A DNA stretch of 63,965 nt, filler included, from an uncultured bacterium (GTDB lineage: Bacteria; DAOPZR01), in NCBI GenBank assembly GCA_964637655.1. It is 10 parts of 10 records of this genome, joined end to end, with 100 filler letters (N's around TTAATTAATTAA, not from the genome) between each part and the next. Parts side by side here need not be neighbours in the genome. Positions count along the whole stretch, not along the records: positions 1 to 6,872 come from CAZWUZ010000207.1; 9 more parts are not named here. One strand, written 5' to 3'. Shown here one piece after another: positions 1-13,930 of this stretch. The translations under genes and the position numbers were made by a program. The notes beneath the pieces were generated by a model. It ran no database searches, was not told the DNA's origin, and saw only the letters and a program-made list of their open reading frames with translations. The first letter of the stretch is position 1, and every line of letters starts with the position of its first letter.

Positions 1-398
1 ACCCCCAGCGCCTGTTCGGGAAAAATAAAGTCAGGCGCATCGGTGGTAAAGGCGCCGACGATGGCGGCAAACTCGCCCGCGCGCGCCTGCTCAATCGCGC
101 GCGACCAGGGCATGGTGCGGTAGTCAACCGCATACCCGGCAGGGGCAAAAACCGCCTGCGCCAGTTCGATCAGGTAGCCGGGCGTATCGCTCCCGGGTTC
201 GCCGTTGTAGGGATACCAGACGTCAGCGACGATGGTGATGACCGTATCGCCGGTGACAACAGGCGGCGCCGGTACGGCCGGCGACGGCGCCTCCGGCCGG
301 CCGCAGCCGGCTAAAGCGACCCAGAGCAGGCAGAGGATAAGGGAGACAATGCCGCCAGCGCGTGCCATTGCCGATGGTGCCGTCCCGGGTCGGAACAT
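1..398 (-). CDS. Solute-binding lipoprotein (SBP family 3-like), runs off window edge
   Basis: Manual translation from ATG 398 (RBS AGGAGG upstream): lipobox ALAGC, then ITIVADVWYPYNG...PGYLIELAQAVF...MPWSRAIEQARAG, typical of family-3 substrate-binding proteins. Not in ORF track. Confidence 0.75.
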   Translation of the reverse strand, partial: MFRPGTAPSAMARAGGIVSLILCLLWVALAGCGRPEAPSPAVPAPPVVTGDTVITIVADVWYPYNGEPGSDTPGYLIELAQAVFAPAGYAVDYRTMPWSRAIEQARAGEFAAIVGAFTTDAPDFIFPEQALG

Positions 399-458
399 CG
401 CCCCTCCTGCCGCACGAGCGTAGCACTGTTTTCCCGGCGCGTCAACGCGCGCCCCGGC

Positions 459-1043
459 TTACTGCAGACGGTCGCTGATAACAATAACCGCCAGCAGAAG
501 CGCATTGCCCAGCCCCACGGCAACCGCAGCCAACGCCACCAGTGCCAGCATACCACGGGCAGTCAGCGCCTGTGCCTGCCAGTCATCGCGCAGCGCGCGT
601 GCGGATACCGTCAGCAACGTGCGCAGGCGACAGGCACCCGTGACTGCGCCTGCCAGCACCAGCAGCAGCGGCAGATACAGACCAAGCCAGCGACCGGCAG
701 TCGTCAGTTGCGGACCGAAGCCCTGGTCCGTCGCCACCCACAGCACCGCTTCCCGCTGCGGAAAGAGATGCCAGCGCCGGAGCAGCCGGCCATACCCTTC
801 TCCTGCCTGTGCGAGGTGCTGACCGTCGCGGACAAAGAGAAAGGCATAGACCCATTCCCTGACCTGCAGCGTGGCATCCTGTGTATCACGCGACCAGTCG
901 ACCGGCATGGGCAGTTCTACCTGTAGCGCGTCTCCCGGTGTCGCCACCCGAATGCGCCACTTGAAATACGACCAGTGCAGGCAGAGCGCGAGAGCGATGA
1001 GCAGCAGCGGGGCCAGGCGCCGCAGCCGCACCGCCGGGGTCAT
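459..1043 (-). CDS. Hypothetical membrane protein
   Basis: 194 aa ORF with three hydrophobic segments; start overlaps the stop of the upstream gene. Confidence 0.6.
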   Translation of the reverse strand: MTPAVRLRRLAPLLLIALALCLHWSYFKWRIRVATPGDALQVELPMPVDWSRDTQDATLQVREWVYAFLFVRDGQHLAQAGEGYGRLLRRWHLFPQREAVLWVATDQGFGPQLTTAGRWLGLYLPLLLVLAGAVTGACRLRTLLTVSARALRDDWQAQALTARGMLALVALAAVAVGLGNALLLAVIVISDRLQ

Positions 1044-1645
1044 GCGACCGGCTCCGGCACAGTCACCGGCACGGTGCAGCGCGCGGCAAAACGTTCCGCA
1101 TCGGCACGGGTGCCGACCACGTCACCCCAATGGATGGGGATGGCCAGCTGCGGCCGCACGGCATTGGCATACACAGCCGCCTCGTCAGCGTTCATCGTGT
1201 AGGTGCCGCCGACGGGAAGGATAAGCGTATCGGCACGCACCGCATCCATCTCCGGAACATGGTCGGTATCGCCGGTGATATAGATGCGTTCCCCGTCAAG
1301 CGTGATGACCAACCCCACCCAGTTGCTGGCGCGCGGGTGGAACGGTTTCGTCGGAGTATAGGCGGGTATGGTCGTCACAGACAGGCCCGCCAGCGTGTAC
1401 GCTGCGCCTGGCCTGACAGCGACAAAGCCCGCCGGCAGGTTGCAATCGGGTGGCGCGGCGACAACGGTCGCGGGCGTCATCAGGCGCGCCACGTCAGCAG
1501 TTGAACAATGATCATCATGCGCGTGAGTGATGAGGATGAGGTCGGCCGGCGGCGCGCCCGGCCGCAGTTTCCACGGGTCGACATACACCCGCTGCGTCCC
1601 GGTCAGCCGCACGCTGCTGTGGCCCAGCCAGTCGATGGTCACCAT
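1040..1645 (-). CDS. Metallo-beta-lactamase-fold hydrolase (UPF0173-like)
   Basis: WLGHSS, VDPW, THAHDDH, GDT, LPVGGTYTM, PIHWG motifs; GGAGG RBS before ATG 1645. Confidence 0.85.
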   Translation of the reverse strand: MVTIDWLGHSSVRLTGTQRVYVDPWKLRPGAPPADLILITHAHDDHCSTADVARLMTPATVVAAPPDCNLPAGFVAVRPGAAYTLAGLSVTTIPAYTPTKPFHPRASNWVGLVITLDGERIYITGDTDHVPEMDAVRADTLILPVGGTYTMNADEAAVYANAVRPQLAIPIHWGDVVGTRADAERFAARCTVPVTVPEPVA

Positions 1646-1710
1646 CGCGCGCCTCCACACACCTGCAGCATAGCATATCGTCACGGATGGCGGTATGCTA
1701 CACTGCGCCC

Positions 1711-2790
1711 ATGGATCGCCTTGTGCCCACGAACGCGGGTGCCTGTTATCCCGTGCTCGACCTGCTCCCCGACCCGCTGCAGATGGTCGCTGCCGACGGG
1801 ACCATTGTGTTCCAGAACCGCGCGATGCGCGCGCTGTTCGGCGACCTCTGCGGCCAGATCTGCTGGCAGGCGCTCAAGGGAACAGACGCGACCGAGTGCC
1901 GCACCTGCCCGCGCCGGCGACTCGAACAGGACGCGTTCCGCGACGAGCAGGTCGAAGTCAGCGCACGCAACGGACGCCGCTACCTGGTCAGCCATTCCGC
2001 GCTAAAGATCGACGGGGCGCCGCACCTCATCGAAATCTACAAGGATGTCACCGAGTTCCGCCGGCTGCTCGAAGAGAACGCGCAGGTGACCGCAGGGGTA
2101 GCCGTGGCGCGCGAGGTGCAGAACAAGTGCATCGCGGTCGCGCAGGACGTGCCCGGATTCACCGTCAACTGGCGCTATCGCCCGTCGCACCTCATCGCCG
2201 GCGACTTTCTCAACGTCCATTACTGGCAGGAACGCTACCTCGCCGCCGCCGTCGCTGATGTCGCCGGGCACGGCATCGGCGCGGCGGCCGTTACCTTCCT
2301 GCTCAAAACCGTCTACGACCAGTTGTGCCGCGAGCGGCTCGGCATGACCGACTTCGCCCGCACCTTGCAGCGCCGCCTGCACGGCTACCTGCTCCCCGGG
2401 CAGTTCATCACTCTCGCGCTCGTGCTCATCGATACGCAAACGATGACCGGGAGCGTGCTCAATGCCGGGCATCCCCCGGTGCTGCATTTCGCCGCCGGCA
2501 GCCGCGCCCCCCGCCGTTTCGACGCGCAATTGCTGCCGCTCGGTGTCACCCCCGCCGCCGGCAGCGTGGTGGCAACCGAATCATTCGCCCTCGCGCCCGG
2601 CGACCGCCTGCTCCTCTATACTGACGGTGCCTTCCAGAAATTCAACCGTTCGCTCGCCGCTTTCATCAGCGCGGCCACCGCTTGCACTGCCGTTTCCCCG
2701 GAACAGTCCGTTGCGGCACTGCTCCCCGCTGATGCGGCCCCGCTCGAAGACGACCTGACCCTGCTGCTGCTTGCCGCCAACCCCGCCTGA
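1711..2790 (+). CDS. PAS-domain PP2C/SpoIIE (RsbU-like) Ser/Thr phosphatase
   Basis: N-terminal PAS-like region; AGDF, ADVAGHG, NAGHPP, YTDG and EDDLT motifs of SpoIIE phosphatases. Start may be 1687 or 1711. Confidence 0.85.
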   Translation: MDRLVPTNAGACYPVLDLLPDPLQMVAADGTIVFQNRAMRALFGDLCGQICWQALKGTDATECRTCPRRRLEQDAFRDEQVEVSARNGRRYLVSHSALKIDGAPHLIEIYKDVTEFRRLLEENAQVTAGVAVAREVQNKCIAVAQDVPGFTVNWRYRPSHLIAGDFLNVHYWQERYLAAAVADVAGHGIGAAAVTFLLKTVYDQLCRERLGMTDFARTLQRRLHGYLLPGQFITLALVLIDTQTMTGSVLNAGHPPVLHFAAGSRAPRRFDAQLLPLGVTPAAGSVVATESFALAPGDRLLLYTDGAFQKFNRSLAAFISAATACTAVSPEQSVAALLPADAAPLEDDLTLLLLAANPA

Positions 2791-2893
2791 CCCGTTTCCC
2801 CACGCGCTCATTCTCGGTCAGTTAGCAGCCGATATAGTGACGGGAGGCGCGCCGCATCAGCAGCGTGTCACTTTGACAGCAGGATGTGTCAGG

Positions 2894-3706
2894 ATGGCGC
2901 TCTCCGCAATCAAGTCGGCACTACTACCCGTATATCATGAACCGGTCACTGTGCCGCCACCTGCAACAGCAGCAGCCGACAACGGGGTCAGCGCCACGCT
3001 GTCAGCGAACGGCATGGCTGCCGCCAATGCGGCGCGGCTCGATGAAGCAATCACCCAGCGCGAATATGAACTGCTGAAACTGCGCGGACTGAGCGATGCC
3101 GAAGTGGCGGACTTCCGCGCGATGGTCGCTGCCGCAGACGAAACGGGTGACCCGCGCGGCTGTATCGCGGACATGGATGCGGCGCAGCGCGAACTGTTGC
3201 GTAAAGCGAACAGTTACGGTTCTGACCTGACTGACGACCGTCTCGCGCAAATGAGCGACGAGGGCGTGGCCAACCTGCTGGTGCGGCAGGACTACCGGGC
3301 ATTCGTCGATTACAACAACGACGGGATGGTTGAGCACGGGGCGGGCATGACCTTCGTCTTCCCGCCACCCAATGCACCGGCCGCGGTCAAGGACGCGTGG
3401 GAGGCGACACTGGCAGAGATGCCGCGCGGCTACAATCGCCTGCTTGCCCCGACACTCTTCATGGTACTGTCGCTGCAGGCCAACATCCGCACCGATGCCG
3501 ACGGCAAAGCCGTTGGGGTCATCGGCCCGGGCGAGGCGGGCTACCGCAACATCTTCGCCACCACCGTCTCAGGGTGGCAGGACCTCTTTGACCGCGCCGA
3601 GGCGTATCTCGACTGGTCGGACACATTCATTACTGAGCCGCAGGCCATCCGGCACCGCAAACTCGACCGGCAGATGCTCGACACCTTCCGCGCGCATCTC
3701 AACTGA
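2894..3706 (+). CDS. Hypothetical protein (acidic, with DYNNDG EF-hand-like loop)
   Basis: Long ORF with host-like codon use; start uncertain (ORF open from 2771). Confidence 0.65.
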   Translation: MALSAIKSALLPVYHEPVTVPPPATAAADNGVSATLSANGMAAANAARLDEAITQREYELLKLRGLSDAEVADFRAMVAAADETGDPRGCIADMDAAQRELLRKANSYGSDLTDDRLAQMSDEGVANLLVRQDYRAFVDYNNDGMVEHGAGMTFVFPPPNAPAAVKDAWEATLAEMPRGYNRLLAPTLFMVLSLQANIRTDADGKAVGVIGPGEAGYRNIFATTVSGWQDLFDRAEAYLDWSDTFITEPQAIRHRKLDRQMLDTFRAHLN

Positions 3707-3721
3707 CACCCCGCACACCCG

Positions 3722-3750
3722 TTGACGCGATAGCGGCACGGTGGTATGCT
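3722..3750 (+). promoter_or_regulatory. Sigma70-type promoter of the peptide/pseudokinase operon
   Basis: TTGACG (3722-3727), 17 nt, TATGCT (3745-3750) with TG extended -10. Confidence 0.75.
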
Positions 3751-3776
3751 CAATGTGTGTTAGGCAGGAGGCGCTG

Positions 3777-3950
3777 ATGGACCGCAAGCCGCAACCGCCA
3801 CAGCCGGATGACCGGCAGCAACCGCAACAGCGCCCGCCGGTTCCCGCCGCGGAAGCCCCGCTCACCAGGGCGGAACTCGATGCCGTTGCCGGCGGGTCAA
3901 CCGATCCCACTGAACATGAGCCCTTCCTCCCCGGAACATACTCTGCCTGA
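3777..3950 (+). CDS. Putative RiPP precursor peptide 1 (57 aa, double-glycine leader)
   Basis: RBS AGGAGG; Pro/Gln-rich leader ending LTRAELDAVAGG, then core STDPTEHEPFLPGTYSA. Confidence 0.75.
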   Translation: MDRKPQPPQPDDRQQPQQRPPVPAAEAPLTRAELDAVAGGSTDPTEHEPFLPGTYSA

Positions 3951-3963
3951 CGGAGGTGCTGTC

Positions 3964-4128
3964 ATGTCCTCACCTGAATCCGCCCCGACGCTGCCCCCGG
4001 TTGCACCACCGGCCGCGGACAGGCGCCATCCCAACGACCGTTTGTCAGACGCGGAACTCGATGCGGTGGCGGGCGGCTTGAAGAGCCAGCCCACGGAAGA
4101 CGAGCCCTTCCTGCCCGGCTACTACTGA
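3964..4128 (+). CDS. Putative RiPP precursor peptide 2 (54 aa, double-glycine leader)
   Basis: RBS GGAGGT; leader ending LSDAELDAVAGG, then core LKSQPTEDEPFLPGYY; paralog of peptide 1. Confidence 0.75.
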   Translation: MSSPESAPTLPPVAPPAADRRHPNDRLSDAELDAVAGGLKSQPTEDEPFLPGYY

Positions 4129-4131
4129 CCG

Positions 4132-5136
4132 ATGCACGCCGTGCTGGTGTCTGCGCGACCGCTGCCGGACAGCGTCGCGCGGCGGCTGGTCGCCGTGGCA
4201 GCCGGGCGCGATACGGGCGACGGTTTTTCCGGCACGCGCTCCGTGCTCATGCGACTGCCGGAGACACTTCCCGGCGGCATCTGTACCCTGAAACTCAAAG
4301 GGGTCGGCTATTGCCGCGACGGCAAACGCGTGTCACCGCAGATGCGCGATTATCTCGACGGCCCCGGTCGCCCGTTCATGGCCCTGCGCGTGGCCCGTGA
4401 CGGACGCATCACCGCGCGGCGTGCCTGCGCGCGCCCGGTGGGCGGCATGCTGCTCGCCAGCGCGCGCAACGAATACCTGCTAACCCGCGCTGCCGCTGCG
4501 GCCGGCGTGCCGGTGCTGCTGCCGGTTGCCTGCGGCGAATATCCGCGCCTGCGTTTCCGCAACCGGCGCCTCGGTTTTGTCGTGCTCGGGCTTCATGACC
4601 GTCACGATCAGCGCATGGGGGAAGCATGGCTGCACCTGCTGCAGCAGGCCGCGGCCGCCCGCGACCCGCGCCGGGCACATGCCGCGCTGCTGCCGCGCCT
4701 GCGCCGCGATATTCGCGCCGCCGGGCAGCTGCTGCGACTGCTGCACGCGGCGGGGTTTGTCAACAGCGCGACCAACCTCAGCAACATCTGCGGACGCGGG
4801 GGTGACTGGCGACTCGGTGACCTCGACCTGCTGCGTCGTACACGCCGCATGACCGCAGCGCAGGAACTGGCCTGGCGCCTGAAGGACTACTACGTGCTGG
4901 CGCTTTCCCTCGCCCGGCGCGCCTGTGTGCCGTCCCTGCGCCGCTACCGGCATCGTCTGCTCGATGTGTTTGGCAACGCATATTTTGGTCCGGGTTATGT
5001 ACCCGGCCGGATGCTGCTGCTCGACCACCTGCGTGCGCGGGAGGTGCTGACCGGCGGTGCGCCGCTGCGCACGGCCGGTCCGCTGGTGCAGTTGCTGCGT
5101 GCCGCGGTCGCGGCCGACCGGCGCGCGCTCAACTGA
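4132..5136 (+). CDS. Protein-kinase-like fold protein, SelO/YdiU-like pseudokinase; candidate peptide-modifying enzyme
   Basis: Motifs in order: [25 protein letters not shown]...[25 protein letters not shown]. These parallel SelO GDGR, LKGAG, GRAVLRS-IRE...LGIP, GFAHGVMNTDNM, DYG. Starts 3 nt after peptide 2. Confidence 0.6.
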
Positions 5137-6872
5137 GACGGAAGCGCGCCGCCAGGTCGGTCAGGTTCTCCGCCTGCCCCGTCAGTTCCTTGGCCGCGGC
5201 GGCGATATGTTCCGCCACCCCCGAGTTTTCCTCGGTCACCGAGGCGACGTTCTGGATCGATTTGGCCACCTCGTCCGCGGTCGTCGTCTGCTCCGTCGTC
5301 GCCGAAGAGATCTGCGTGATGGAGTTGGCCGTCTGCTCCACCCCGGTGACGATGCGCCCGATGGTGCTGCCCGCCGCGTCGGCGAGTTCCAGTCCCTGCC
5401 GCACGCTGTCGCCGCCGGCGCGGATCAGCGAGGCAATCTCCTTCGCCGACTGTGCCGATCGCTCGGCCAGTTTGCGCACCTCGTCCGCCACCACCGCGAA
5501 CCCGAGCCCGTGCTGCCCCGCCCGCGCCGCCTCGATGGCGGCGTTCAGCGCCAGCAGGTTGGTCTGGTCGGCGATTTCGCCGATGGCCGCACTGATCTGG
5601 CTAATCTGCTCCGAACTGCGCGCGATCTGCCGTGTCGCCTCCACCGACTGCCCGATGGCGCTCCCCCCCTGCCGCGCCTCGCCGGCCGCTTCCGCCGCGC
5701 GGTCGCGCGCCTCGATTGCCCCTTTCGCCACGCTGCCGATGGAAGAACTCATCTCCTCGATGGCGGCGGAAAGCTGCTCGATGGTCGCCGCCTGGTTCTG
5801 CGCGCCCGTGGCCACCTCGTGTGCCCCCGTCGCCAGGTTTTCCGCTGAGCCGCGGATATTCCCCGCCGCCTGCTGAATGCCCGCCAGCATGCTGCGCAGC
5901 TGCGCTACCATTTCCTGCATCGACGCGAGGATGCCGGTCGCGTCTGCCGACGCGGTGATGTTCAGGTCGCCCGCCGCCACCCGCTCCGCGATGGCCGCGA
6001 TATGCGCCGGTTCGCCGCCCAGCTGCCGCAGGATGCTCCGCCCGAGCACAAACGCGAGCAGTGCGGTGAGCAGCAACGCCCCCAGCGCCACGCCGCCCGC
6101 CAACAGCAGCGCGCGGTTGGCCTCACCGCGCAGCCGTGCCGCCTGCGCCGTCAGGTCGGACGCGAGACGGTCCTCAACCCGCTTGAGCAGGTCGATTTTC
6201 GCCGTCTGCTGCGCGACCCAGAAGGCGGGATCGACCCCGAAGCCGCCGGCGGCCGCGCGCTCGAACGCGAGCGCGCGCAGGCGCGCCGTTTCCGCTACCG
6301 GCGTTCCCGTCACTGTCGCCTCGTGGAACCGCACCTGCTCCGCCTGCGCCAGCGAGCGGAAGATCTTCTCGTAGGTTTCCTGGGACGCCACCAGCGCGGC
6401 AAAGGCATTGAACATCCCGGGCGCAAAGACGTCGCGCGCAAAAGTGTTGTTGAGCGTCGCCCGCTCGATCCCCGCCCGCTCCTTCCCCTGCAGGAACGCC
6501 GCGTAGGCATTCGCCTGGCGCGCAATCTGCGCATCGTCGCTCAGCGTGGCAATAACCTGCACCGCCTCGAGGAACGCGCCATTGAGTTGCGTGTAGTAGC
6601 CGATTGCCTCGGGCGCGGGCAGGCGCAGCGCGCTGCTCCCCTCGCGCGTCTGCGCCAGTTTCGCCAGCAGCGTCTCCGCCCGGCCCAGCGCGGCGCTGAA
6701 CGCCTCACCATAGCGTGCGCGGTCGAACTCCGCCAGCATGCTCTCCAGTTCGCCGCGCCGCGTGTCGGTCACCTGCCGCTGCGCGGCCAGTTCCGTGCCG
6801 AACTTCTCCCCGCTGCTGCCGAGGAAACCGGCGGTCAGGCCGCGCTCCTTCTGCGTCTCATGCACCAGCGCA
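5129..6872 (-). CDS. Methyl-accepting chemotaxis protein with NIT (nitrate/nitrite) sensor domain, 5' truncated
   Basis: VHETQKERG and [12 protein letters not shown] motifs, TM, HAMP, and [20 protein letters not shown] signalling hairpin. Confidence 0.92.
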
Positions 6873-6972
6873 NNNNNNNNNNNNNNNNNNNNNNNNNNNN
6901 NNNNNNNNNNNNNNNNTTAATTAATTAANNNNNNNNNNNNNNNNNNNNNNNNNNNNNNNNNNNNNNNNNNNN
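6873..6972. other. Artificial contig linker (first of nine)
   Basis: N-run/TTAATTAATTAA/N-run, 100 nt. Identical linkers at 13831-13930, 20769-20868, 27600-27699, 34431-34530, 41126-41225, 47791-47890, 54391-54490, 60990-61089. Contig lengths decrease along the window. Confidence 0.99.
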
Positions 6973-7543: not shown

Positions 7544-9016
7544 ATGGCTGACACACTGCAACAGTTCAAGGAATACCTCGCGGACATCAGCAGGTTGTCA
7601 CAGGCGGCGGCACTGCTGTCGTGGGACCTGGAGACGGGGTGCCCGCGCGCGGGTGTGGCGAAGCGCGCCGAGGCGATGGGCCTGTTGTCGCAGGAGATCT
7701 TCTCGCGCAGCGTCAGCGAGCGCATGGGGGGGTTTCTCGACACGCTGGCCGCCACGGAACTCAGCGACGACGACCGCGCGCTGGTGCGCGTGGTCAAACG
7801 CGACTACGACAAGGCCAAGGCGATCCCCCCCGCGCTGGTGCGCGACCTTTCCGTGACCGCGGCGCAGGCGCAGCCCGCCTGGGAGCAGGCGAAAGCAGAC
7901 GCCGCTTTTCCCGCGTTCGCCCCGCACCTCGAAAAACTGCTCGCGCTGAAATGCGAGATGGCAGACATCGTGGGCTGGCAGGGTCACCGCTACGATGCGC
8001 TGCTCGACGATTATGAGCCGGGGCTGACGGTGGCGGAACTCGACCCGCTGCTCGCCACGCTGCGCGCCGACCTCGTCCCGCTGGCTGAGGCCATCATCGC
8101 CCGGCAGGGTCCGGTCCCCGCACTCCCCGCCGGCGGGTATCCGGTCGCCGCGCAGCGCGCGCTGGGCGAGGAGGTGCTGCGCCTGCTCGGCTATGATTTC
8201 GCCGCGGGGCGGTTAGACGCATCGGCCCATCCCTTCTCCATCACCATCAGCGCGGGCGACCATCGCGTCACCACCCGCTTCGACGAAAGGGATTTCCGCC
8301 CGTCGTTCTTCTCCGTGCTGCACGAGGGGGGGCATGCGCTCTACGAGATGGGCATCCCGGCGAAATTCCACGAAACGCCGCTGGGCGAGGGGTGCTCGAT
8401 GGCGGTGCATGAATCGCAGTCGCGTTTCTGGGAGAACATCGTCGGACGCAGCCGCGCTGTCCTCGAGTATGTGCGCCCGGTCATGGCCAGGCATCTGCCG
8501 GCACTCGACGGGCTCGACAGCGATGCGCTCTACCGCCTCGCCAACGGGGTGCAGCGCTCGCTGATCCGCACCGAGGCGGACGAAGTGACCTACAACCTGC
8601 ACGTCATGCTGCGCTATGAACTGGAAAAGGGGCTGCTTGACGGTTCGCTGGCGGTGGCTGACCTGCCCGCGGCGTGGAACGCGAAACTGCGCGACTATCT
8701 CGGGCTGACGCCCACGTCCGACCGCGCGGGGGTGCTGCAGGACGTGCACTGGGCGCACGGCTCGTTCGGCTACTTCCCGTCGTACCTGCTGGGCAACCTC
8801 TACGCGGCGCAACTGGCGGACGACATGACGCGCGACCTTGACCTCGACGCCTGCCTGCGGCGGGGCGATCTGCGCGCACCGCTGGCCTGGCTGCGGGAAA
8901 AAGTGCATGCGCACGGGCGGGCGCTGCTGCCGGCGGAACTGCTGCAGCGCGCGACGGGGAACGCACCTGATGCGCGATATTTCCTCGCCTACCTGCGGCA
9001 CAAGTTCCTGAACTGA
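7544..9016 (+). CDS. Carboxypeptidase, M32 (Taq) family
   Basis: HPF, HEGGH, HESQS, IRTEADE, QDVHW and GYFPSY motifs. Confidence 0.95.
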   Translation: MADTLQQFKEYLADISRLSQAAALLSWDLETGCPRAGVAKRAEAMGLLSQEIFSRSVSERMGGFLDTLAATELSDDDRALVRVVKRDYDKAKAIPPALVRDLSVTAAQAQPAWEQAKADAAFPAFAPHLEKLLALKCEMADIVGWQGHRYDALLDDYEPGLTVAELDPLLATLRADLVPLAEAIIARQGPVPALPAGGYPVAAQRALGEEVLRLLGYDFAAGRLDASAHPFSITISAGDHRVTTRFDERDFRPSFFSVLHEGGHALYEMGIPAKFHETPLGEGCSMAVHESQSRFWENIVGRSRAVLEYVRPVMARHLPALDGLDSDALYRLANGVQRSLIRTEADEVTYNLHVMLRYELEKGLLDGSLAVADLPAAWNAKLRDYLGLTPTSDRAGVLQDVHWAHGSFGYFPSYLLGNLYAAQLADDMTRDLDLDACLRRGDLRAPLAWLREKVHAHGRALLPAELLQRATGNAPDARYFLAYLRHKFLN

Positions 9017-9051
9017 GTATGCGCATGTCCATCACTGACAACAGCGTAAAC

Positions 9052-9083
9052 CGTTCACCGCGGAGCACACGGAGCACGCAGAG
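9052..9083 (+). repeat. Intergenic 9-mer tandem repeat element (CAC-GGAG type)
   Basis: CGTTCACCGCGGAGCACACGGAGCACGCAGAG matches 57203-57234 at 30 of 32 positions. Confidence 0.75.
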
Positions 9084-9167
9084 CGTCACCGTTGCCCGCG
9101 GTTGTTTTTTGCTGCTGCGCATCTGGCGCAGCATGGGCAACACTACTTACCGGCAGGAGTCAGACAG

Positions 9168-9890
9168 ATGAGCGGGTTCTATGCTGCCATCGGCGCGCAC
9201 TACGACGAGATTTTCCCCCTGGACGACGACATGGCGGATTTCCTGCTGCGCGCGCTGCCGCGCGGGCGGGTGCTCGATCTCGGCTGCGCGACGGGAAGCA
9301 TGGCGCTGCACCTTGCGGCGCTCGGCTACGAAGTGCACGGTTTCGACCTCGACGCGGGAATGGTCGCCACGGCGCAGGCGCGCGCGCGTGCTGCCGGGCT
9401 GCCCGCGACATTCGCGGTACGCGACCTGCGCGATACCGCGGCGAGCGGCACTCCCGGCTCACTGCGCGGTGCCTGGTGCACGGGGAACACGCTCGTGCAT
9501 CTGGGGGGCGAGGCGGAGATCGGCGCGCTGCTGCGCGACGTGGCAGTGCTGCTGGCGTCCGGCGGCGTGCTGGCGCTGCAGATCATCAATTACGACCGCG
9601 TGCTCGACAACAGCGTCACGGCGCTGCCGACCCGCGACACCCCGCTGCTCACCTTCACGCGCACCTATCGTCCCGCGGGCGCGCAGCTGGACTTCTGCAC
9701 CCGCCTGACGCTGAAGGCGGACGGGCATTCCTACGACCATTGCATTCCGCTTTACCCGCTGCGGGCGGCGGCACTCGAGTCGCTGCTGCGCGAGGCGGGA
9801 TTCAGCGACGTGAAGTTATCGGGTGATTTTACCGGCACCGCATGGTCAGCAACATCCTACCTGACGGTGGCGATAGCCCGCGTGCCCTGA
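9168..9890 (+). CDS. Class I SAM-dependent methyltransferase
   Basis: VLDLGCATG motif I and GNTLVHL; AGGAG RBS before ATG 9168. Confidence 0.9.
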   Translation: MSGFYAAIGAHYDEIFPLDDDMADFLLRALPRGRVLDLGCATGSMALHLAALGYEVHGFDLDAGMVATAQARARAAGLPATFAVRDLRDTAASGTPGSLRGAWCTGNTLVHLGGEAEIGALLRDVAVLLASGGVLALQIINYDRVLDNSVTALPTRDTPLLTFTRTYRPAGAQLDFCTRLTLKADGHSYDHCIPLYPLRAAALESLLREAGFSDVKLSGDFTGTAWSATSYLTVAIARVP

Positions 9891-9891
9891 G

Positions 9892-10899
9892 TCAGAAACG
9901 GAAATCAGCCAGCACGGGGTGGTGGTCGGAGAGACGATCGTCGTCGTGTTTGACAATGCGACAGCTGCCGGCCACATAGTGCGCGTCGAGCGCCTGTGGC
10001 ACGATGATGTGGTCGATGATGCGGTTATAGGTGCGCCCGCGATACGTGCCTGACACTGTATAATGGGTCGGCGGCAGGAAGGGGGCAGTGAGGAAACGCA
10101 CCCCTCCCACACGTTCCGCCTGCAGCAGCGGCGTCAGCGTGCTCTCCGCGTCGTCGCTGCCATGCTGGTCGTTGAAGTCACCGAGCAGCAGGCAACGGCC
10201 CGCCGCGGCGGTGCCCTGCTGCGCTTCGAGCCAGGCAAGCAGTCCCGCGCATTCCGCCGTGCGCCGGCGGTCGGACGCCCCGCGGTCACGGCCCGACTGC
10301 GCCTTGAGGTGCACCACCAGCGCGGAAAAGACGAGGCCGTTGCTGACAAAATCGGCGGTAATGGGGAGGCGGGCGAAGGTGGTACGCCGCCCGTTCTCCT
10401 CACCGACATAGCGGAAGCGGCGGTCGATCTGCCGCGGGCGCGAGGCGCGCACCTTCTGTTCATTCCAGACCAGTGCCAGGTCCTGCGGCAGGTCGGTATC
10501 GTCAATGAAACCGGCATAGGTTCGTTCGGGATAGCGGCGCTGCAGCGCGGCGATGAAGAGTTCCAGCGCGGCGCGGTTCTCGATCTCCTGCAGGGCGATG
10601 AGGTCGGCATCAACGAGTGCGGCGAGGCGGTCAGCCAGCGCTTCCGTGCCGCGCCGGACATTGCGCCCGAAATCGCCGTACTGCGCGTCGTTGCGGCGGT
10701 CATCATCACCGAAGAACATCAGATTGAAGGTGGCGACCGTCAGCGCGCCGCTGTCCGCCGCAGCTGCCGCCGCGGCTTCCGGCGCATGCTGCACTTCGAC
10801 CGGCACCTCCCCGCCGCAGCCGGCCAGCAGGCAGCCGAGCAGCAGGGCCGCCACGAGCGGCAGCGCTGAGCGCCGCTCAGCCGTCATTGTCGTCGTCAC
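9892..10899 (-). CDS. Endonuclease/exonuclease/phosphatase family lipoprotein
   Basis: LLAGC lipobox; ATFN, ALQE, VHLKA, GDFND, IDHI and SDHHPV motifs. Confidence 0.9.
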   Translation of the reverse strand: MTTTMTAERRSALPLVAALLLGCLLAGCGGEVPVEVQHAPEAAAAAAADSGALTVATFNLMFFGDDDRRNDAQYGDFGRNVRRGTEALADRLAALVDADLIALQEIENRAALELFIAALQRRYPERTYAGFIDDTDLPQDLALVWNEQKVRASRPRQIDRRFRYVGEENGRRTTFARLPITADFVSNGLVFSALVVHLKAQSGRDRGASDRRRTAECAGLLAWLEAQQGTAAAGRCLLLGDFNDQHGSDDAESTLTPLLQAERVGGVRFLTAPFLPPTHYTVSGTYRGRTYNRIIDHIIVPQALDAHYVAGSCRIVKHDDDRLSDHHPVLADFRF

Positions 10900-13830
10900 C
10901 GGCCGGAGCGGGGACGCGCACCTCGCTGTACTCGGTCATGCGCACTTCGCCCTGGTCATAGGCAAAGGTACAGCGCGACAGCTTCTCCTCGATATTGAGC
11001 GTGGCATTGCGCACGGTCAGGCGGCAGCCGGGATGGAGGAACGACATCGCGCCAATGCGCCCCTCGCTGCGCTCGCCCAGTTTCTGCTGCAGCGCCGCCT
11101 GCTGCGTTTCGAGCTTGGCGAGGCGCCCGGTCAGATTGCGCGACGCCGCCTGCAGCTGCAGCAGCAGTTCCTCCTTGGCGGGCGGGAGCGCCCCGGTCTT
11201 CGCTTTCAGTTCCGTCAGCACCTTCAACCCGGTGGCAACCTTGGTGTAATTGGTCTGGTAGTCCTCGAGCATCTTCGTCAGTTCCGCCACCTGCAGGCGC
11301 ACGGTCGGGTCGAGCCCGACCTTGATGATGGTGCGGGTTGCAACTTCCGCGCCCAGTTCGCGGGCGAAGACGGTGCGGGCGGCGCGGATGGTGCCCCCGA
11401 CGATGACCCCCTTCTTCCCGGCGGCACAGTGCACCGTATGCCCGGCACTGACCTCGCTGTGCAGGATGGTCTCGCTGATGACCACGTGGCGGCCGGCGAC
11501 AAGGGTGGCGGACTCGGCGAATTTGGCGCGGATATCGCGCCCGGCTTTGACCTGCGTCCCCTCGCTGCCGATGATGCCGCCCAGCACGATGACATCACCC
11601 TCGGCATCGAGCGTGGCGCGGCTGACGCTGCCGGCAGTAATGTTGCCCGAGGCGCGCACGGCAAACCCCTCGGTGATGCATCCCTTGACCAGCACCGAGC
11701 CGAAAAAGGTGATGTTTCCCGTTTCGAGGTTGACGTCACCGGCGACGTAGTGCACCGGTTCGACCTTGAACAGGTGCCCCATCTGCACCAGCTGCCCGTC
11801 GGCAGTGGCGACGATTTCACGCCCGTCCGCGGAGGCGGCAACGTTGCGCCCGCACTTGACCTGCACGCTGCGCGGCGGCTTTACGGCGATTTCGTTGTCG
11901 TAGATGTCGAGGCCCGGGGTGCCGGCCACCGGCGGATGGAGCACCGCGAGCAGCTGTCCCGCGGTGACGTTCTCGATGAGGTTGAGTTCGCGGAAGTCGA
12001 CCCGCCCGTGTTCGTCCTGAGCCGGGCGCGCTTCCTTCACCTGCGCCACTTTCATTTCGATGCGCCCGTCCTGTCCGGGCACGGGGGCGATGCCCTGCGC
12101 CACCACCACCGGTTCGCCGTAGCGCTGCTCGCTGAAGAGACGGCTGACCGCGGCAGCATCGATGCGCTTGATTCCCTTCTCGGCAAGTTTCTCGAGCACC
12201 TCAGCAGCGGTAACGGCACGCCCGAGCACCCTTGCCGCCGTCACCGTCACCGTGCACTGCAGGCGGTCGCGGCTGATTTCCAGGGTGAATTTCCCGTCGA
12301 GTTCCGGTTCGGGCTGGCGCGGGGCAATGACCACCTCGAGTCCCGACGCCTCCTTGACCGTGTCGGCGAGCAGTTTCGCATCGATTCCGCGGCTGTAGCC
12401 GCGTTTCGTCAGTTCCACCTTGACCGCGGCGGCATCAACTTTCTTCCCCGTGCCGCGCGCCGGGCGGACGGCGAGCAGCAGGCCATGGTCGGCATTGGTC
12501 ATGAGGAACGACCCGTCGTCGTTCTGCGACGCCTGCGCGAGCGCATCCGAGGCCTTGGCCGCGTCGCGTTTCGGCTGTTTGACCGACACCGTAATGATGT
12601 AGGGTTTCTGCCCGACCCCGAAAACCCCCTTGCTCTTTTCCTGCACGACGCGGTACTGCAACTGCTCGACGGGGCGGCCGAGCGCGGCAGCGGCCTGCCT
12701 GAGCCCCGCGGGAATTTCGTCGCAGGTGATTTCGACCGCGGTTTTGCGGGCCGCGCTGCCGGGCACGTAGAGCCGTTCGAGCGCGGCGGGATTCTCCCCG
12801 GCCACGGTCTGTACGGCAATGAACGGGGCAGGCGCCGCCCCGTCGCCTGTCTTGCGCTTGGGCGCAGGGAGCGGATAGACGAGCAGCGCGCTCTCCGGCA
12901 GACCGGTGAAGAGCGCCGCCTGCCGGCGCGCCTGCGCCTCGTCCGCGGCCTGCAGGCGCATCACCTTGCGCAGGCGCTGCAGGCGGGCCGCATGCTCAGC
13001 GAAATCGACCGCCGGCGCCTCACCCGTTGCGGCGAGGTTGATCAGCCCGCGCGGGCGCAGCACGCGCGGGTCGCGGTAGGTTTCCGCGGTGACACGGCCG
13101 CTGCGTTCGACGAACCCGACGCGCTTCTCCGCCTTGGCCAGGGTCAACACGTCGCTGCGCCCGATGGTCAGCTTGACCCCGGGAAATGCCGTGCCGGCGA
13201 CGCAGACCGTGCCCGCCACCGGGTTCTTCACCTGCTCGGCAAGCCGCGCCTCCTGCGCCGCGAGGCGTTCAAGGGCTTCCTCGCAGCGGTTGCGGATGGC
13301 GAGCTGCGCATCGAGCTGTTCCTGCGCCTCGGGCGTGATGGCCCCCGCCCGCTTGCGCGCGAGCAGTTCATGCGTCAGCTGCTGCGCCGGCTCGAACTGC
13401 GCGCGCAGCCGCTGCATTTCGCTGCGCACCAGTTCCAGCGCCTCCTTGTCGGCGCCGCGCGGGGCGGCCAGCACCACCGTTTCGGCCCCCGTACCGCTCC
13501 CCAGGTCGCGGCAGTTGAGTTCGCTCCCCGCCTGCAGCGTGCCCCCGACGACCAGTCCCTTGAGCCCGACGCAGACGATCTTCTCGCCCGCTTTGACCGT
13601 GCAGTGCATCAGTGCTTCGTCGATGATGATGTTGTTGTCCGCTTCGAGGGTCGCACTCTCGGCGAACCCGGCAAAAATATCCTGCCCGGCGGTCACCTTA
13701 CCCTTGCCGCCGCCGCGGATGCCCTTCTTGACGAGGACGGTGCCGCCGGCGCTGAGCGTGGCGCGCCCGACGGTGCCTTCGACGATGATGTTGCCGTCCG
13801 CCTGCAGCGTCACCCCGTCCTCGACACTCC
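10877..13830 (-). CDS. FapA/DUF342 family protein with two DUF342 modules and Jag_N-like domain(s), 5' truncated
   Basis: Two beta-helical DUF342 repeats (GKVTAGQDIFAGFAESATL; VKAGRDIRAKFAESATL), GRVDFREL, VAGDVNLETGNI, and a central VVQEKSKGVFGVGQKP. Confidence 0.85.
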
Positions 13831-13930
13831 NNNNNNNNNNNNNNNNNNNNNNNNNNNNNNNNNNNNNNNNNNNNTTAATTAATTAANNNNNNNNNNNNNN
13901 NNNNNNNNNNNNNNNNNNNNNNNNNNNNNN

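Follow-up and report, generated by a model that had tools for sequence, protein, structure and literature searches.

What does a protein with a kinase-like fold do when its gene follows genes for very small, acidic peptides and its catalytic Asp is missing? The question is raised by an open reading frame (ORF) at 4132..5136 (+) in DNA of an uncultured bacterium (GenBank assembly GCA_964637655.1, lineage DAOPZR01). The stretch analysed, termed here the window, has 63,965 nucleotides, filler included, and joins 10 parts of 10 records of this genome. The ORF encodes P0001, a 334-amino-acid protein of an unannotated family. An earlier account made from the DNA alone, the sequence-only reading, took it for a SelO-type pseudokinase of a peptide operon that might AMPylate a conserved Thr or Tyr of the peptides, or activate Glu or C-terminal carboxylates. 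Relatives, an AF2 model and fold and profile comparisons now indicate that P0001 is very probably an ATP-dependent maturase of the peptides encoded beside it. More tentatively, it is proposed to be guided by the peptide leader and to use ATP to activate an invariant Glu, the second of the peptide core. The precursor/maturase pair appears to define an undescribed family of RiPPs, peptides that are made on the ribosome and modified after translation.

Is the enzyme gene real? The frame is open and its translation stop-free, and the five motif strings quoted in the sequence-only reading are all present, in the order given there. The composition is extreme: P0001 has 15.9% Arg, a pI of 11.5 and a net charge of +33, and Arg makes up 6.5-7.4% of the four neighbouring ORFs. 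Nothing matches P0001 at E<=1 in Pfam, NCBIfam or PADLOC, a phmmer search of PDB sequences gives a chance CdiA match alone (E 0.76), and a word-indexed homologue search finds a single relative, P0002. An exhaustive phmmer search of 1.84 billion representatives finds 96 relatives at E<=1e-3, 23 of them at E<=1e-10 and 4 at E<=1e-30; the relatives P0003 and P0006 are Lys-rich and Arg-poor, in contrast to P0001. Because of these 96 relatives, the Lys-rich ones among them and the confident AF2 model, the gene is considered real and not a frame artefact of high-GC DNA. When the window's phylum (2 genomes) was searched, the second genome had no member, and 60 'relatives' yielded one match, a weak fragment with stops (E 0.0026). 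The phylum of G062, the genome with locus L005, has one full-length member in 401 genomes, that of G062 itself; in the other 34 matching genomes the match is limited to the catalytic-loop region, and these are therefore taken for generic kinases. Several distant members (P0010, P0015, P0036, P0069 and others) sit inside proteins of 1,600-7,652 amino acids, P0010 together with M54-peptidase-like and RmlD-like regions and P0036 with hydrolase and GH15 domains. These giants are possible gene-calling fusions.

What does the enzyme gene belong to? Its assignment to a peptide operon is borne out by two precursor genes directly upstream, both with Shine-Dalgarno sites. Precursor A (57 amino acids; 3777..3950, +), defined with the help of the precursor alignment, begins at an ATG after AGGAGG and has a short leader ending in ELDAVAGG, followed by the core STDPTEHEPFLPGTYSA. 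Precursor B (54 amino acids; 3964..4128, +) has a leader with the same ending and the core LKSQPTEDEPFLPGYY, and its stop lies 3 nt before the enzyme ATG. The two cores have net charges of -3 and -2, and the earlier remark that a very Arg-rich protein accompanies acidic cores is thus correct. A sigma-70-like promoter (TTGACG, 17-nt spacer, TATGCT, with a TG before the -10) at 3722..3750 (+) is a consensus match only; it is the one promoter-like site in 2600-5400, where shuffled sequences give a mean of 0.2, and no terminator-like site was found in the same interval. A three-gene operon at 3777-5136, consisting of two precursors and one maturase, is the best explanation of this arrangement.

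A profile search from 12 precursors brings in 33 precursor clusters at E<=0.01, and 31 of the 33 have a shared core motif, P-[ST]-E-x-E-P-[FW]-x-P-G. P0110 and P0116, to which precursor B is most closely related, are on contigs of 16-20 kb. Within these 31 cores the first Pro is found in 31, the Ser/Thr in 30, the first Glu in 30 (one has Asp), the second Glu in 31 and the following Pro in 30; then come Phe, Trp or Met in 31, Pro in 29 and Gly in 28. The second Glu is the sole acidic core position without variation. Its place in the core ranges from position 7 to position 10 and is 7 in 21 cores. None of the 31 contains Cys. Tyr follows the motif in 15 cores and is missing from 16, and many cores end in EPFLPG; Tyr therefore cannot be the conserved target of AMPylation that had been suggested. 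The suggestion of carboxylate activation fares better in one half than in the other. Glu stays a live idea, but activation of the C-terminal carboxylate is unlikely to be the conserved step because the C-termini of the cores vary.

The leaders are more diverse than the cores. They share the ending L-[ST]-x-[DE]-E-[LM]-x-x-[VM]-x-G-G, and the Nif11 leader model TIGR03798 of NCBIfam is above its cut-off in 3 of 7 precursors scanned (E 3e-14 to 3e-18). The window's two short-leader peptides have no TIGR03798 match, and other short leaders likewise match no model. In P0127 (94 amino acids) the core TKPTEDEPFLPG stands behind a leader with precomputed PF02979 and PF14407 assignments, which we read as NHLP-type. 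The core is a module that moves between short, Nif11 and NHLP leaders, and wherever DNA is available it is accompanied by this enzyme.

Some precursors near the enzyme show signs of rearrangement. The core STDPTEHEPFLPGTYSA is identical in the loci of the two closest relatives, L052 and L053, with 87-94% identity in the enzyme, and the leader of the first precursor is replaced upstream of ELDAVAGG (L052:3-140, L053:549-707). No ATG, GTG or TTG start there yields a product of at least 25 amino acids; the altered leader may be a recombination scar or have an unusual start. In L054:2460-2660, and also in L055, the frame of a short-leader precursor runs as far as LRWVAGGTKPSEDEGYTPV and is closed there by a stop, with YEPFMPGDE following in the next frame; this looks like an insertion or frameshift within the core motif. 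The Nif11-type precursor adjoining the frameshifted one in L054 is intact.

How firmly are peptide and enzyme linked? Besides the window, 15 loci with relatives are available, 2 from species genomes and 13 from metagenomes. Close homologues follow one or two double-glycine-leader precursor genes, and a motif-bearing peptide ORF ends 3-187 nt before the enzyme match in 14 of the 14 loci with usable upstream DNA, the window included. Outside this count stand L059, which starts 44 nt before the match, and L064, with 144 nt upstream (440 amino acids, 31% identity over the matched stretch). Two linked loci are titled as Actinomycetes and as a Planctomycetaceae metagenome-assembled genome (MAG).

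Which fold does the enzyme have? An AF2 model of P0001 from a 65-sequence alignment reaches a mean predicted local confidence (pLDDT) of 93.6 and a predicted template-modelling score (pTM) of 0.92. Compared with the PDB by Foldseek, it gives at least 149 matches at E<=0.001; WaaP 6DFL is the top match (E 2.2e-6), and the ROP5 pseudokinase and SelO 6EAC (E 1.9e-5) are also found. A VIA-align search of 48,161 chains, which is independent of Foldseek, returns 278 chains at Z>=8, and the rows listed in the fold searches are nearly all kinase-fold proteins. SelO 6EAC has rank 1 (Z 15.2, 244 residues aligned, root-mean-square deviation 4.2). It is followed by WaaP (14.6), Bud32 (13.3), the NRPS-independent siderophore (NIS) synthetase AcsD (13.2), RioK1 (12.4) and the CurKC kinase domain (12.3); the AcsD alignment, with 263 residues, is the longest in this list, and SbnC has Z 11.3 with 250 residues aligned. 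After re-alignment of the Foldseek top 1000, seven SelO/YdiU entries have Z 14.5-15.2, five PRPK entries 14.0-14.8 and WaaP 14.6; ordinary protein kinases have Z about 12. The catalytic loop and the DFG-like motif also align with those of PknA and others in a profile-to-PDB search (E about 5e-4). Judged by the predicted structure, P0001 is a member of the atypical kinases, with SelO nominally first and tied with PRPK and WaaP. The model also has a beta insertion of ~50 residues between beta3 and helix C. Model, fold searches and profile-to-PDB alignment thus confirm that the quoted motifs follow kinase-fold order, and the Foldseek comparison with SelO proposed in the sequence-only reading returns a kinase-like fold, not the unrelated one that would have spoken against it.

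Is P0001 then a SelO protein? Profile-profile comparison by hhalign used a SelO profile of five PF02696-matching ORFs (475-520 amino acids, without E. coli YdiU) and a Kdo/WaaP profile of seven PF06293-matching proteins; both are shallow (5 and 7 sequences), and the probability gap between them is large and consistent. With family alignment A3 (8 sequences) the Kdo/WaaP probability is 96.4% (E 1e-9) vs 42.7% for SelO (E 2.5e-4). The values are 97.5% (E 5e-12) vs 58.6% (E 9.5e-5) with A1 (17 sequences), and 98.5% (E 3e-15) vs 66.9% (E 5e-5) with A2 (65 sequences). As a control, the SelO profile aligned to the Kdo profile gives 94.4%. In a Pfam scan of 65 members at E<=1, six match Kdo (best E 0.0086), two WaaY, one ABC1 and one Pkinase, and 0 of the 65 match PF02696, the SelO family. 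In a stricter scan of 54 relatives, P0019 alone passes the Kdo cut-off (23.9 vs 21.3 bits). These profiles place the family as a separate branch of the kinase-like superfamily, nearest by sequence to the lipopolysaccharide (LPS) kinases, and not as a SelO subfamily. Among the atypical kinases, its closest kin are Kdo/WaaP, Bud32/PRPK and SelO, and it belongs to none of these. The label of a SelO-type pseudokinase thus survives in part: the kinase fold is there, the ATP and Mg residues are kept, the HRD Asp is missing and SelO/YdiU are the nominal top structural matches, but no member matches the SelO family, the profile comparison favours Kdo/WaaP and the structural Z-scores tie with PRPK and WaaP.

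Could the protein simply be an ordinary small-molecule or LPS-sugar kinase, with peptide genes that are unrelated to it? The LPS-kinase family is the best profile match, and P0019 even exceeds the Pfam Kdo threshold. A best match of this kind with an intact catalytic Asp would have counted against a pseudokinase; the match is there, but the Asp is absent. The peptides are linked to the enzyme in every locus of the count, at short distances, no LPS genes lie nearby and the predicted complex described below passes its controls. An ordinary kinase that has nothing to do with the peptides is therefore extremely unlikely.

What is left of the active site? Conservation was counted in a hidden Markov model alignment of 99 domains from 97 proteins (P0001 and 96 library representatives), to which all counts out of 99 refer. 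The strand GTRSVLM (residues 34-40; 4231..4251, +) carries Arg36, conserved in 90/99. The beta3 strand, LKLKGVG (residues 53-59; 4288..4308, +), holds the ATP-binding Lys56 (95/99) in a K-G-x-G motif that aligns with the KGxG of SelO (Gly57, 80/99). At the start of helix C (residues 104-115; 4441..4476, +; helix 108-123 in the model) are Gly104 (97/99) and Glu114 (95/99), the salt-bridge partner of Lys56. D159-Q-R161 (4606..4614, +) lies just past beta5, at the hinge or the start of helix D, and Arg161 is kept in 86/99. Arg36, Gly104 and Arg161 are both conserved and family-specific. The catalytic loop (residues 204-219; 4741..4788, +) includes Ala213, Asn215, Ser217 and the metal-binding Asn218, and residues 213 and 215-217 fall in the predicted peptide interface. 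Position 218 is Asn in 84/99 and Gln in 12 more. LGDLD (residues 228-232; 4813..4827, +), the DFG equivalent, contributes the metal-binding Asp230 (96/99); position 232 is Asp or Glu in 67/99, and position 252 is Asp in 82/99 and Glu in 9.

The catalytic Asp itself is missing. Position 213, aligned to the HRD Asp of PknA by the profile-to-PDB search and to the Asp of the Kdo profile by hhalign, is Ala in P0001. Its eight commonest residues in the 99 domains are Ser (16), Ala (16), Asn (10), Phe (9), Met (8), Tyr (8), His (7) and Gln (7), and Asp is not among these eight. Position 215 is His in 70/99 and Asn in P0001. Position 217, the site of an Asp in SelO/YdiU, is Ser in P0001; in the family it is Gly in 37, Asp in 19, Asn in 9, Ser in 6, Ala in 6 and Glu in 5, and the motif NTDN is invariant in the five SelO sequences used. 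The claim that the catalytic loop lacks Asp and aligns to the SelO sequence HGVMNTDN therefore holds for the HRD-Asp site, in P0001 as in the family, but the alignment breaks where the Asp of NTDN is Ser217. The 19 domains with Asp directly before the metal-binding Asn resemble SelO NTDN at this point, and 5 have Glu; by this criterion some members may stand closer to SelO than P0001 does. Given a kinase-like fold that has retained its ATP and Mg residues but not the catalytic Asp, a non-canonical chemistry is plausible. Kinase-fold proteins that lack the catalytic Asp and retain metal and nucleotide ligands are known to carry out AMPylation (SelO), glutamylation (SidJ) and NMPylation (NiRAN).

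Might the chemistry be that of SelO, with ATP bound in a flipped orientation and AMP transferred to the conserved Ser/Thr hydroxyl? In YdiU, as described in the part of the source consulted, the flipped nucleotide is anchored through its beta and gamma phosphates by R87, K107, R170 and R177, the metal ligands are N247 and D256, and D246 is the proposed base (10.1101/692707). The counterparts in Pseudomonas syringae SelO are K113, E136, R176, R183, N253 and D262, according to an excerpt of a second article (PMC8097203). These residues were assigned to P0001 by motif and spacing, through the low-confidence (67%) SelO alignment. The Arg of LGDGR is taken as R87, and as the equivalent of Arg36, because it precedes the beta3 Lys by 20 residues in both proteins; K107 corresponds to Lys56 and N247 to Asn218, and D256 to Asp230 by motif, not by alignment. 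Of the motif R...SHxR, the first Arg, R170, is not kept and corresponds to Gly153, and the second, R177, to Arg161, with a 7-residue spacing. D246 corresponds to Ser217. What is SelO-like in P0001, by this mapping, is K-G-x-G, two of three phosphate Arg and the missing HRD Asp; the substitute base and the terminal domains are absent.

AMP transfer has further points in its favour. SelO/YdiU are not only the nominal top structural matches, they also have the most residues aligned among the kinase families listed (237-250, over model residues 1-334), and only AcsD has more. K-G-x-G is shared with SelO, and the HRD Asp is absent in both, the SelO part of this being taken from a portion of a published analysis (PMC3281104); Arg36 and Arg161 would stand for two of the three phosphate-holding Arg (10.1101/692707, as excerpted). 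An ESM-Atlas feature search, a lead only, ranks a 'MchC protein' cluster, with 35% of its members matching PF02696, at 18 (score 0.93, 175 shared features). Set against these points are the low-confidence SelO alignments, the lack of any PF02696 match, the Gly at the R170 site and the Ser at the D246 site, which is Asp in only 19/99 domains. Arg161 lies in the predicted peptide interface, not clearly in a nucleotide pocket, and the N- and C-terminal regions of SelO are missing. AMPylation of Ser/Thr is accordingly considered improbable.

Does the enzyme bind the peptide? A complex of enzyme and precursor B, entered with alignments of 65 and 12 rows respectively, was predicted together with ATP and 2 Mg by co-folding, a check that the sequence-only reading had proposed. 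Three runs score 0.71, 0.78 and 0.01, with a median of 0.71 vs 0.36 for the best of 3 controls; these are model predictions and not measured values. The mark used is reached by 116 of 157 solved complexes and by 2 of 215 mismatched pairs, in a calibration made without ligands and without user-built alignments. Agreement between the runs extends to at least 6% of contacts, with a partner pLDDT of no less than 33 (34-56). In the best run, leader residues 24-35, with the invariant Leu27 and Glu31, lie on the C-lobe helices 258-273 and 296-306, and core residues 41-52 follow helix D and the catalytic loop. The core contacts of lowest predicted error are those of Glu47 with N215, S217 and residue 259 and of Phe49 with residues 216 (L216) and 163, and R161 is within the predicted interface. 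The prediction supports binding of the precursor B leader by the enzyme.

A leader-binding surface does not by itself require catalysis. Is P0001 a non-catalytic pseudokinase that binds the leader and passes the peptide to another protein, e.g. a radical-SAM maturase or an exporter? The loss of the catalytic Asp and the large C-lobe surface seen in the predicted complex are in keeping with this, and in four actinomycete loci the pair is bordered by radical-SAM/SPASM genes. Yet Lys56, Glu114, Asn218 and Asp230 are present in 84-96 of the 99 domains at 23-39% identity, which is unexpected for a scaffold, and no second maturase gene lies beside the pair on the window's contig or in L005. A scaffold without activity is thus quite unlikely.

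Which reaction, then, would an active maturase carry out? The proposal tentatively favoured here is as follows. The C-lobe helices would bind the conserved end of the double-glycine leader, and this would place the invariant P-[ST]-E-x-E-P-[FW]-x-P segment in the active site. With ATP, the second Glu (Glu47 of precursor B) would be activated at its side-chain carboxylate, either as acyl-phosphate or as acyl-adenylate, and a nucleophile would capture the activated Glu, the simplest being the Ser/Thr three residues upstream, which would give a small lactone. Cleavage behind GG and export of the acidic peptide, of 12-25 residues, would follow, by a C39-peptidase ABC exporter. The missing Asp would be explained because a carboxylate needs no general base. 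Support comes from the invariance of the second Glu, from the position of Glu47 at the catalytic loop in the predicted complex and from AcsD as a structural neighbour. NIS synthetases adenylate carboxylates. SidJ is a kinase-fold enzyme that does the same, in the part of the publication consulted (PMC6858067).

A lasso-like lactam, closed from head to side chain, was also considered, as the second Glu lies at position 7-10; it was set aside because the N-terminal amine of a leader-bound peptide would not be free, the predicted contacts including the leader, and because B and C lasso proteins are absent.

The alternative closest at hand is plain phosphorylation. Here P0001 would be an acidophilic peptide Ser/Thr kinase that binds ATP in the ordinary orientation and transfers the gamma-phosphate to the invariant Ser/Thr, and the phosphopeptide would be the product or an intermediate. 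The closest family by hhalign, Kdo/WaaP, consists of phosphotransferases, the weak Pfam matches (Kdo, WaaY, ABC1, Pkinase) are all to kinase families, Ser/Thr is nearly invariant and the enzyme is strongly basic. With acidic residues at +1 and +3, the site fits a consensus of the CK2/Fam20C type. His215, or the Asp/Glu at position 232, could replace the base. However, the canonical Asp is missing family-wide, and His215 is Asn in P0001; the lowest-error catalytic-loop contacts of the predicted complex include Glu47 and not Thr44, and the pair has no conserved lyase or phosphatase partner. Plain phosphorylation is for these reasons somewhat doubtful, and the weights given to it and to activation of Glu differ little.

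Several points weigh against the activation of Glu. The co-fold value is the model's own confidence, one of its three runs falls to 0.01 and the partner pLDDT is low, and the predictor has no chemical knowledge of the acceptor residue. Glu activation is something we infer, and the predictions contain neither a nucleotide orientation nor an acceptor atom. The nearest sequence family is one of ordinary phosphotransferases; [ST]-E-x-E reads as a classic acidophilic kinase site, and the Glu residues may set the specificity without being modified themselves. We know of no precedent for a Ser/Thr-Glu lactone from i to i+3. As to the linkage, many loci are near-duplicates and fall into ~7 sequence-distinct groups by our own grouping, so the 14 loci are not 14 independent events, and the distant member L064, with its short upstream DNA, adds nothing to the count. 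The contig is only 6.9 kb long, and partner enzymes could lie beyond its ends. Radical-SAM genes lie near the pair in L056, L058, L060 and L062.

What else lies around the pair? Positions 1-6872 of the window are one contig, C207, of a 485-contig MAG; N runs at 6873-6920 and about 13,830-13,880 mark contig joins. Genes beyond 6872 are no operon neighbours because the contig ends there. A gene for a protein with PAS and SpoIIE/PP2C-type phosphatase domains (1687-2790, +; PF07228, E 1.9e-32) lies two genes upstream of the enzyme and is treated as unrelated, since it was not seen beside the pair in the other loci inspected. An acidic 311-amino-acid ORF (2771-3706, +; pI 4.9) matches no Pfam, NCBIfam or PADLOC family. 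It was considered as part of the system and rejected: the closest relative, L053, does not have it upstream of its peptides, and the promoter-like site lies between. On the other side, in convergent orientation to the enzyme gene, is a gene for a NIT-domain methyl-accepting chemotaxis protein (5129-6865, -); the two genes share 8 nt at their 3' ends.

The exporter might be encoded elsewhere in the genome. The only C39 peptidase domain found in the MAG (L065, G000:C158:6505-9115; E 9e-37) is near the end of another contig, and the protein is a candidate exporter and leader peptidase for these peptides. Upstream in L005 is the C-terminal end of an ABC-transporter-like ATPase, recognized by eye from the translation. 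L005:1109-1945, in the Planctomycetaceae-titled locus, contains a remnant of the lipoprotein-like gene found ahead of the precursor in the Actinomycetes locus (L004:31-1020), and the C-terminal stretches of the two are very similar by eye; the L005 locus may have been transferred, or the contig mis-binned. The actinomycete radical-SAM genes are at L056:7961-9451, L058:770-2530 and 7869-9503, and L062:2-1246. A SPASM domain is detected in L058:770-2530 and in L062; the window's contig has no radical-SAM gene of this kind. The actinomycete genes may represent a second maturase acting on cores with Trp, or belong to a neighbouring cluster. Another Nif11-like peptide (10582-10866, by eye from its N-terminal sequence) and a transposase are also encoded in L058.

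What would a maturase of this kind mean? A pseudokinase-like fold comes here with a tiny, genetically linked substrate, with cores from 12 residues and three candidate target residues. The apparently undescribed precursor/maturase pair joins the Nif11/NHLP leader world and is spread over distant lineages, and a nameless family of at least 96 representative clusters gains its first functional handle. In a wider and rather unlikely form of the proposal, the family would be a kinase-fold peptide ligase or cyclase that gave up the Asp since the core Glu carboxylate is itself the nucleophile. It would form an acyl-phosphate, or an acyl-AMP with a SelO-like flipped nucleotide, followed by ester or amide closure, and it would be the first of a new class of RiPPs whose core reads P-[ST]-E-x-E-P-[FW]-x-P-G. 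If true, this would be a kinase-fold counterpart of the ATP-grasp graspetide ligases and the lasso cyclases. A search of open full text, covering main texts and with subscription journals outside its coverage, gave no paper on this enzyme family, on its core motif or on any kinase-fold maturase that stands alone and acts on cores of this kind.

How does P0001 compare with known systems? SelO/YdiU (PF02696; PDB 6EAC, 6K20, 6LNA) share the kinase fold (Z 14.5-15.2, 232-250 residues aligned), the K-G-x-G at the beta3 Lys, the absence of the HRD Asp and the presence of the metal-binding Asn and the DFG-type Asp. They differ in the NTDN Asp (Ser217 here) and in R170 (Gly153). P0001, with its 334 residues, is also about 150 residues shorter, without the QFG N-terminal region and the C-terminal regulatory domain (~100-150 residues), and of the QFG/LGDGR region it aligns just a G-x-R-S remnant with LGDGR. 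It carries the ~50-residue beta insertion, and its context is a peptide operon, not redox stress. The Kdo/WaaP kinases (PF06293; PDB 6DFL) are closest by profile-profile comparison, give the top Foldseek match (Z 14.6 by structural alignment) and have a comparable size and lobe layout. However, the Asp of their H-x-D-x-x-x-x-N is Ala213 in P0001, the Kdo profile is gapped in hhalign opposite the family-specific Asp159-x-Arg161, the neighbours of P0001 are peptide precursors and not LPS genes, and the Pfam Kdo model does not match P0001.

Class IIb microcins, of about 60-90 residues, offer a parallel of another kind. That MchC-type proteins, which mature them, are remote SelO relatives, as the sequence-only reading stated, is in print: in the portion of the article consulted, MchC is a remote SelO homologue with a variable HRD-type motif, and attachment of the siderophore to microcin H47 requires MchC, which acts together with MchD, an acyltransferase of the HlyC type (Dudkiewicz et al., 2012; PMC3281104). 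Compared by description, MchC/MceJ and P0001 are each a kinase-fold protein encoded beside a ribosomal peptide with a double-glycine leader, and MchC/MceJ are needed for its maturation; the Atlas feature lead is the sole tie of the family to MchC. In contrast to the microcin systems, the neighbours scanned on the short contig include no MchD/MceI HlyC-type acyltransferase and no siderophore genes, and the cores are acidic peptides of 12-25 residues.

The kinase domains of the class III/IV lanthipeptide synthetases (LanKC/LanL), which keep the catalytic Asp, are a further point of reference. CurKC (PDB 7WJ6/7WJ7) is a structural neighbour (Z 12.3-12.4), and these are leader-guided kinase folds acting on Ser/Thr of RiPP cores; one relative of P0001 has a faint LanKC match (E 0.0047, 15 bits vs a cut-off of 575). 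Theirs are fused to a lyase and a cyclase, whereas P0001 is stand-alone and its cores are Cys-free. The carboxylate-activating ligases, namely the ATP-grasp graspetide ligases, the lasso cyclases, SidJ and NIS synthetases such as AcsD (PDB 3FFE), might serve as a working analogy. The family is neither ATP-grasp nor asparagine-synthetase-like, but the ligases use ATP to activate a Glu or Asp side chain for an ester or amide, as P0001 may do with the second Glu of its cores.

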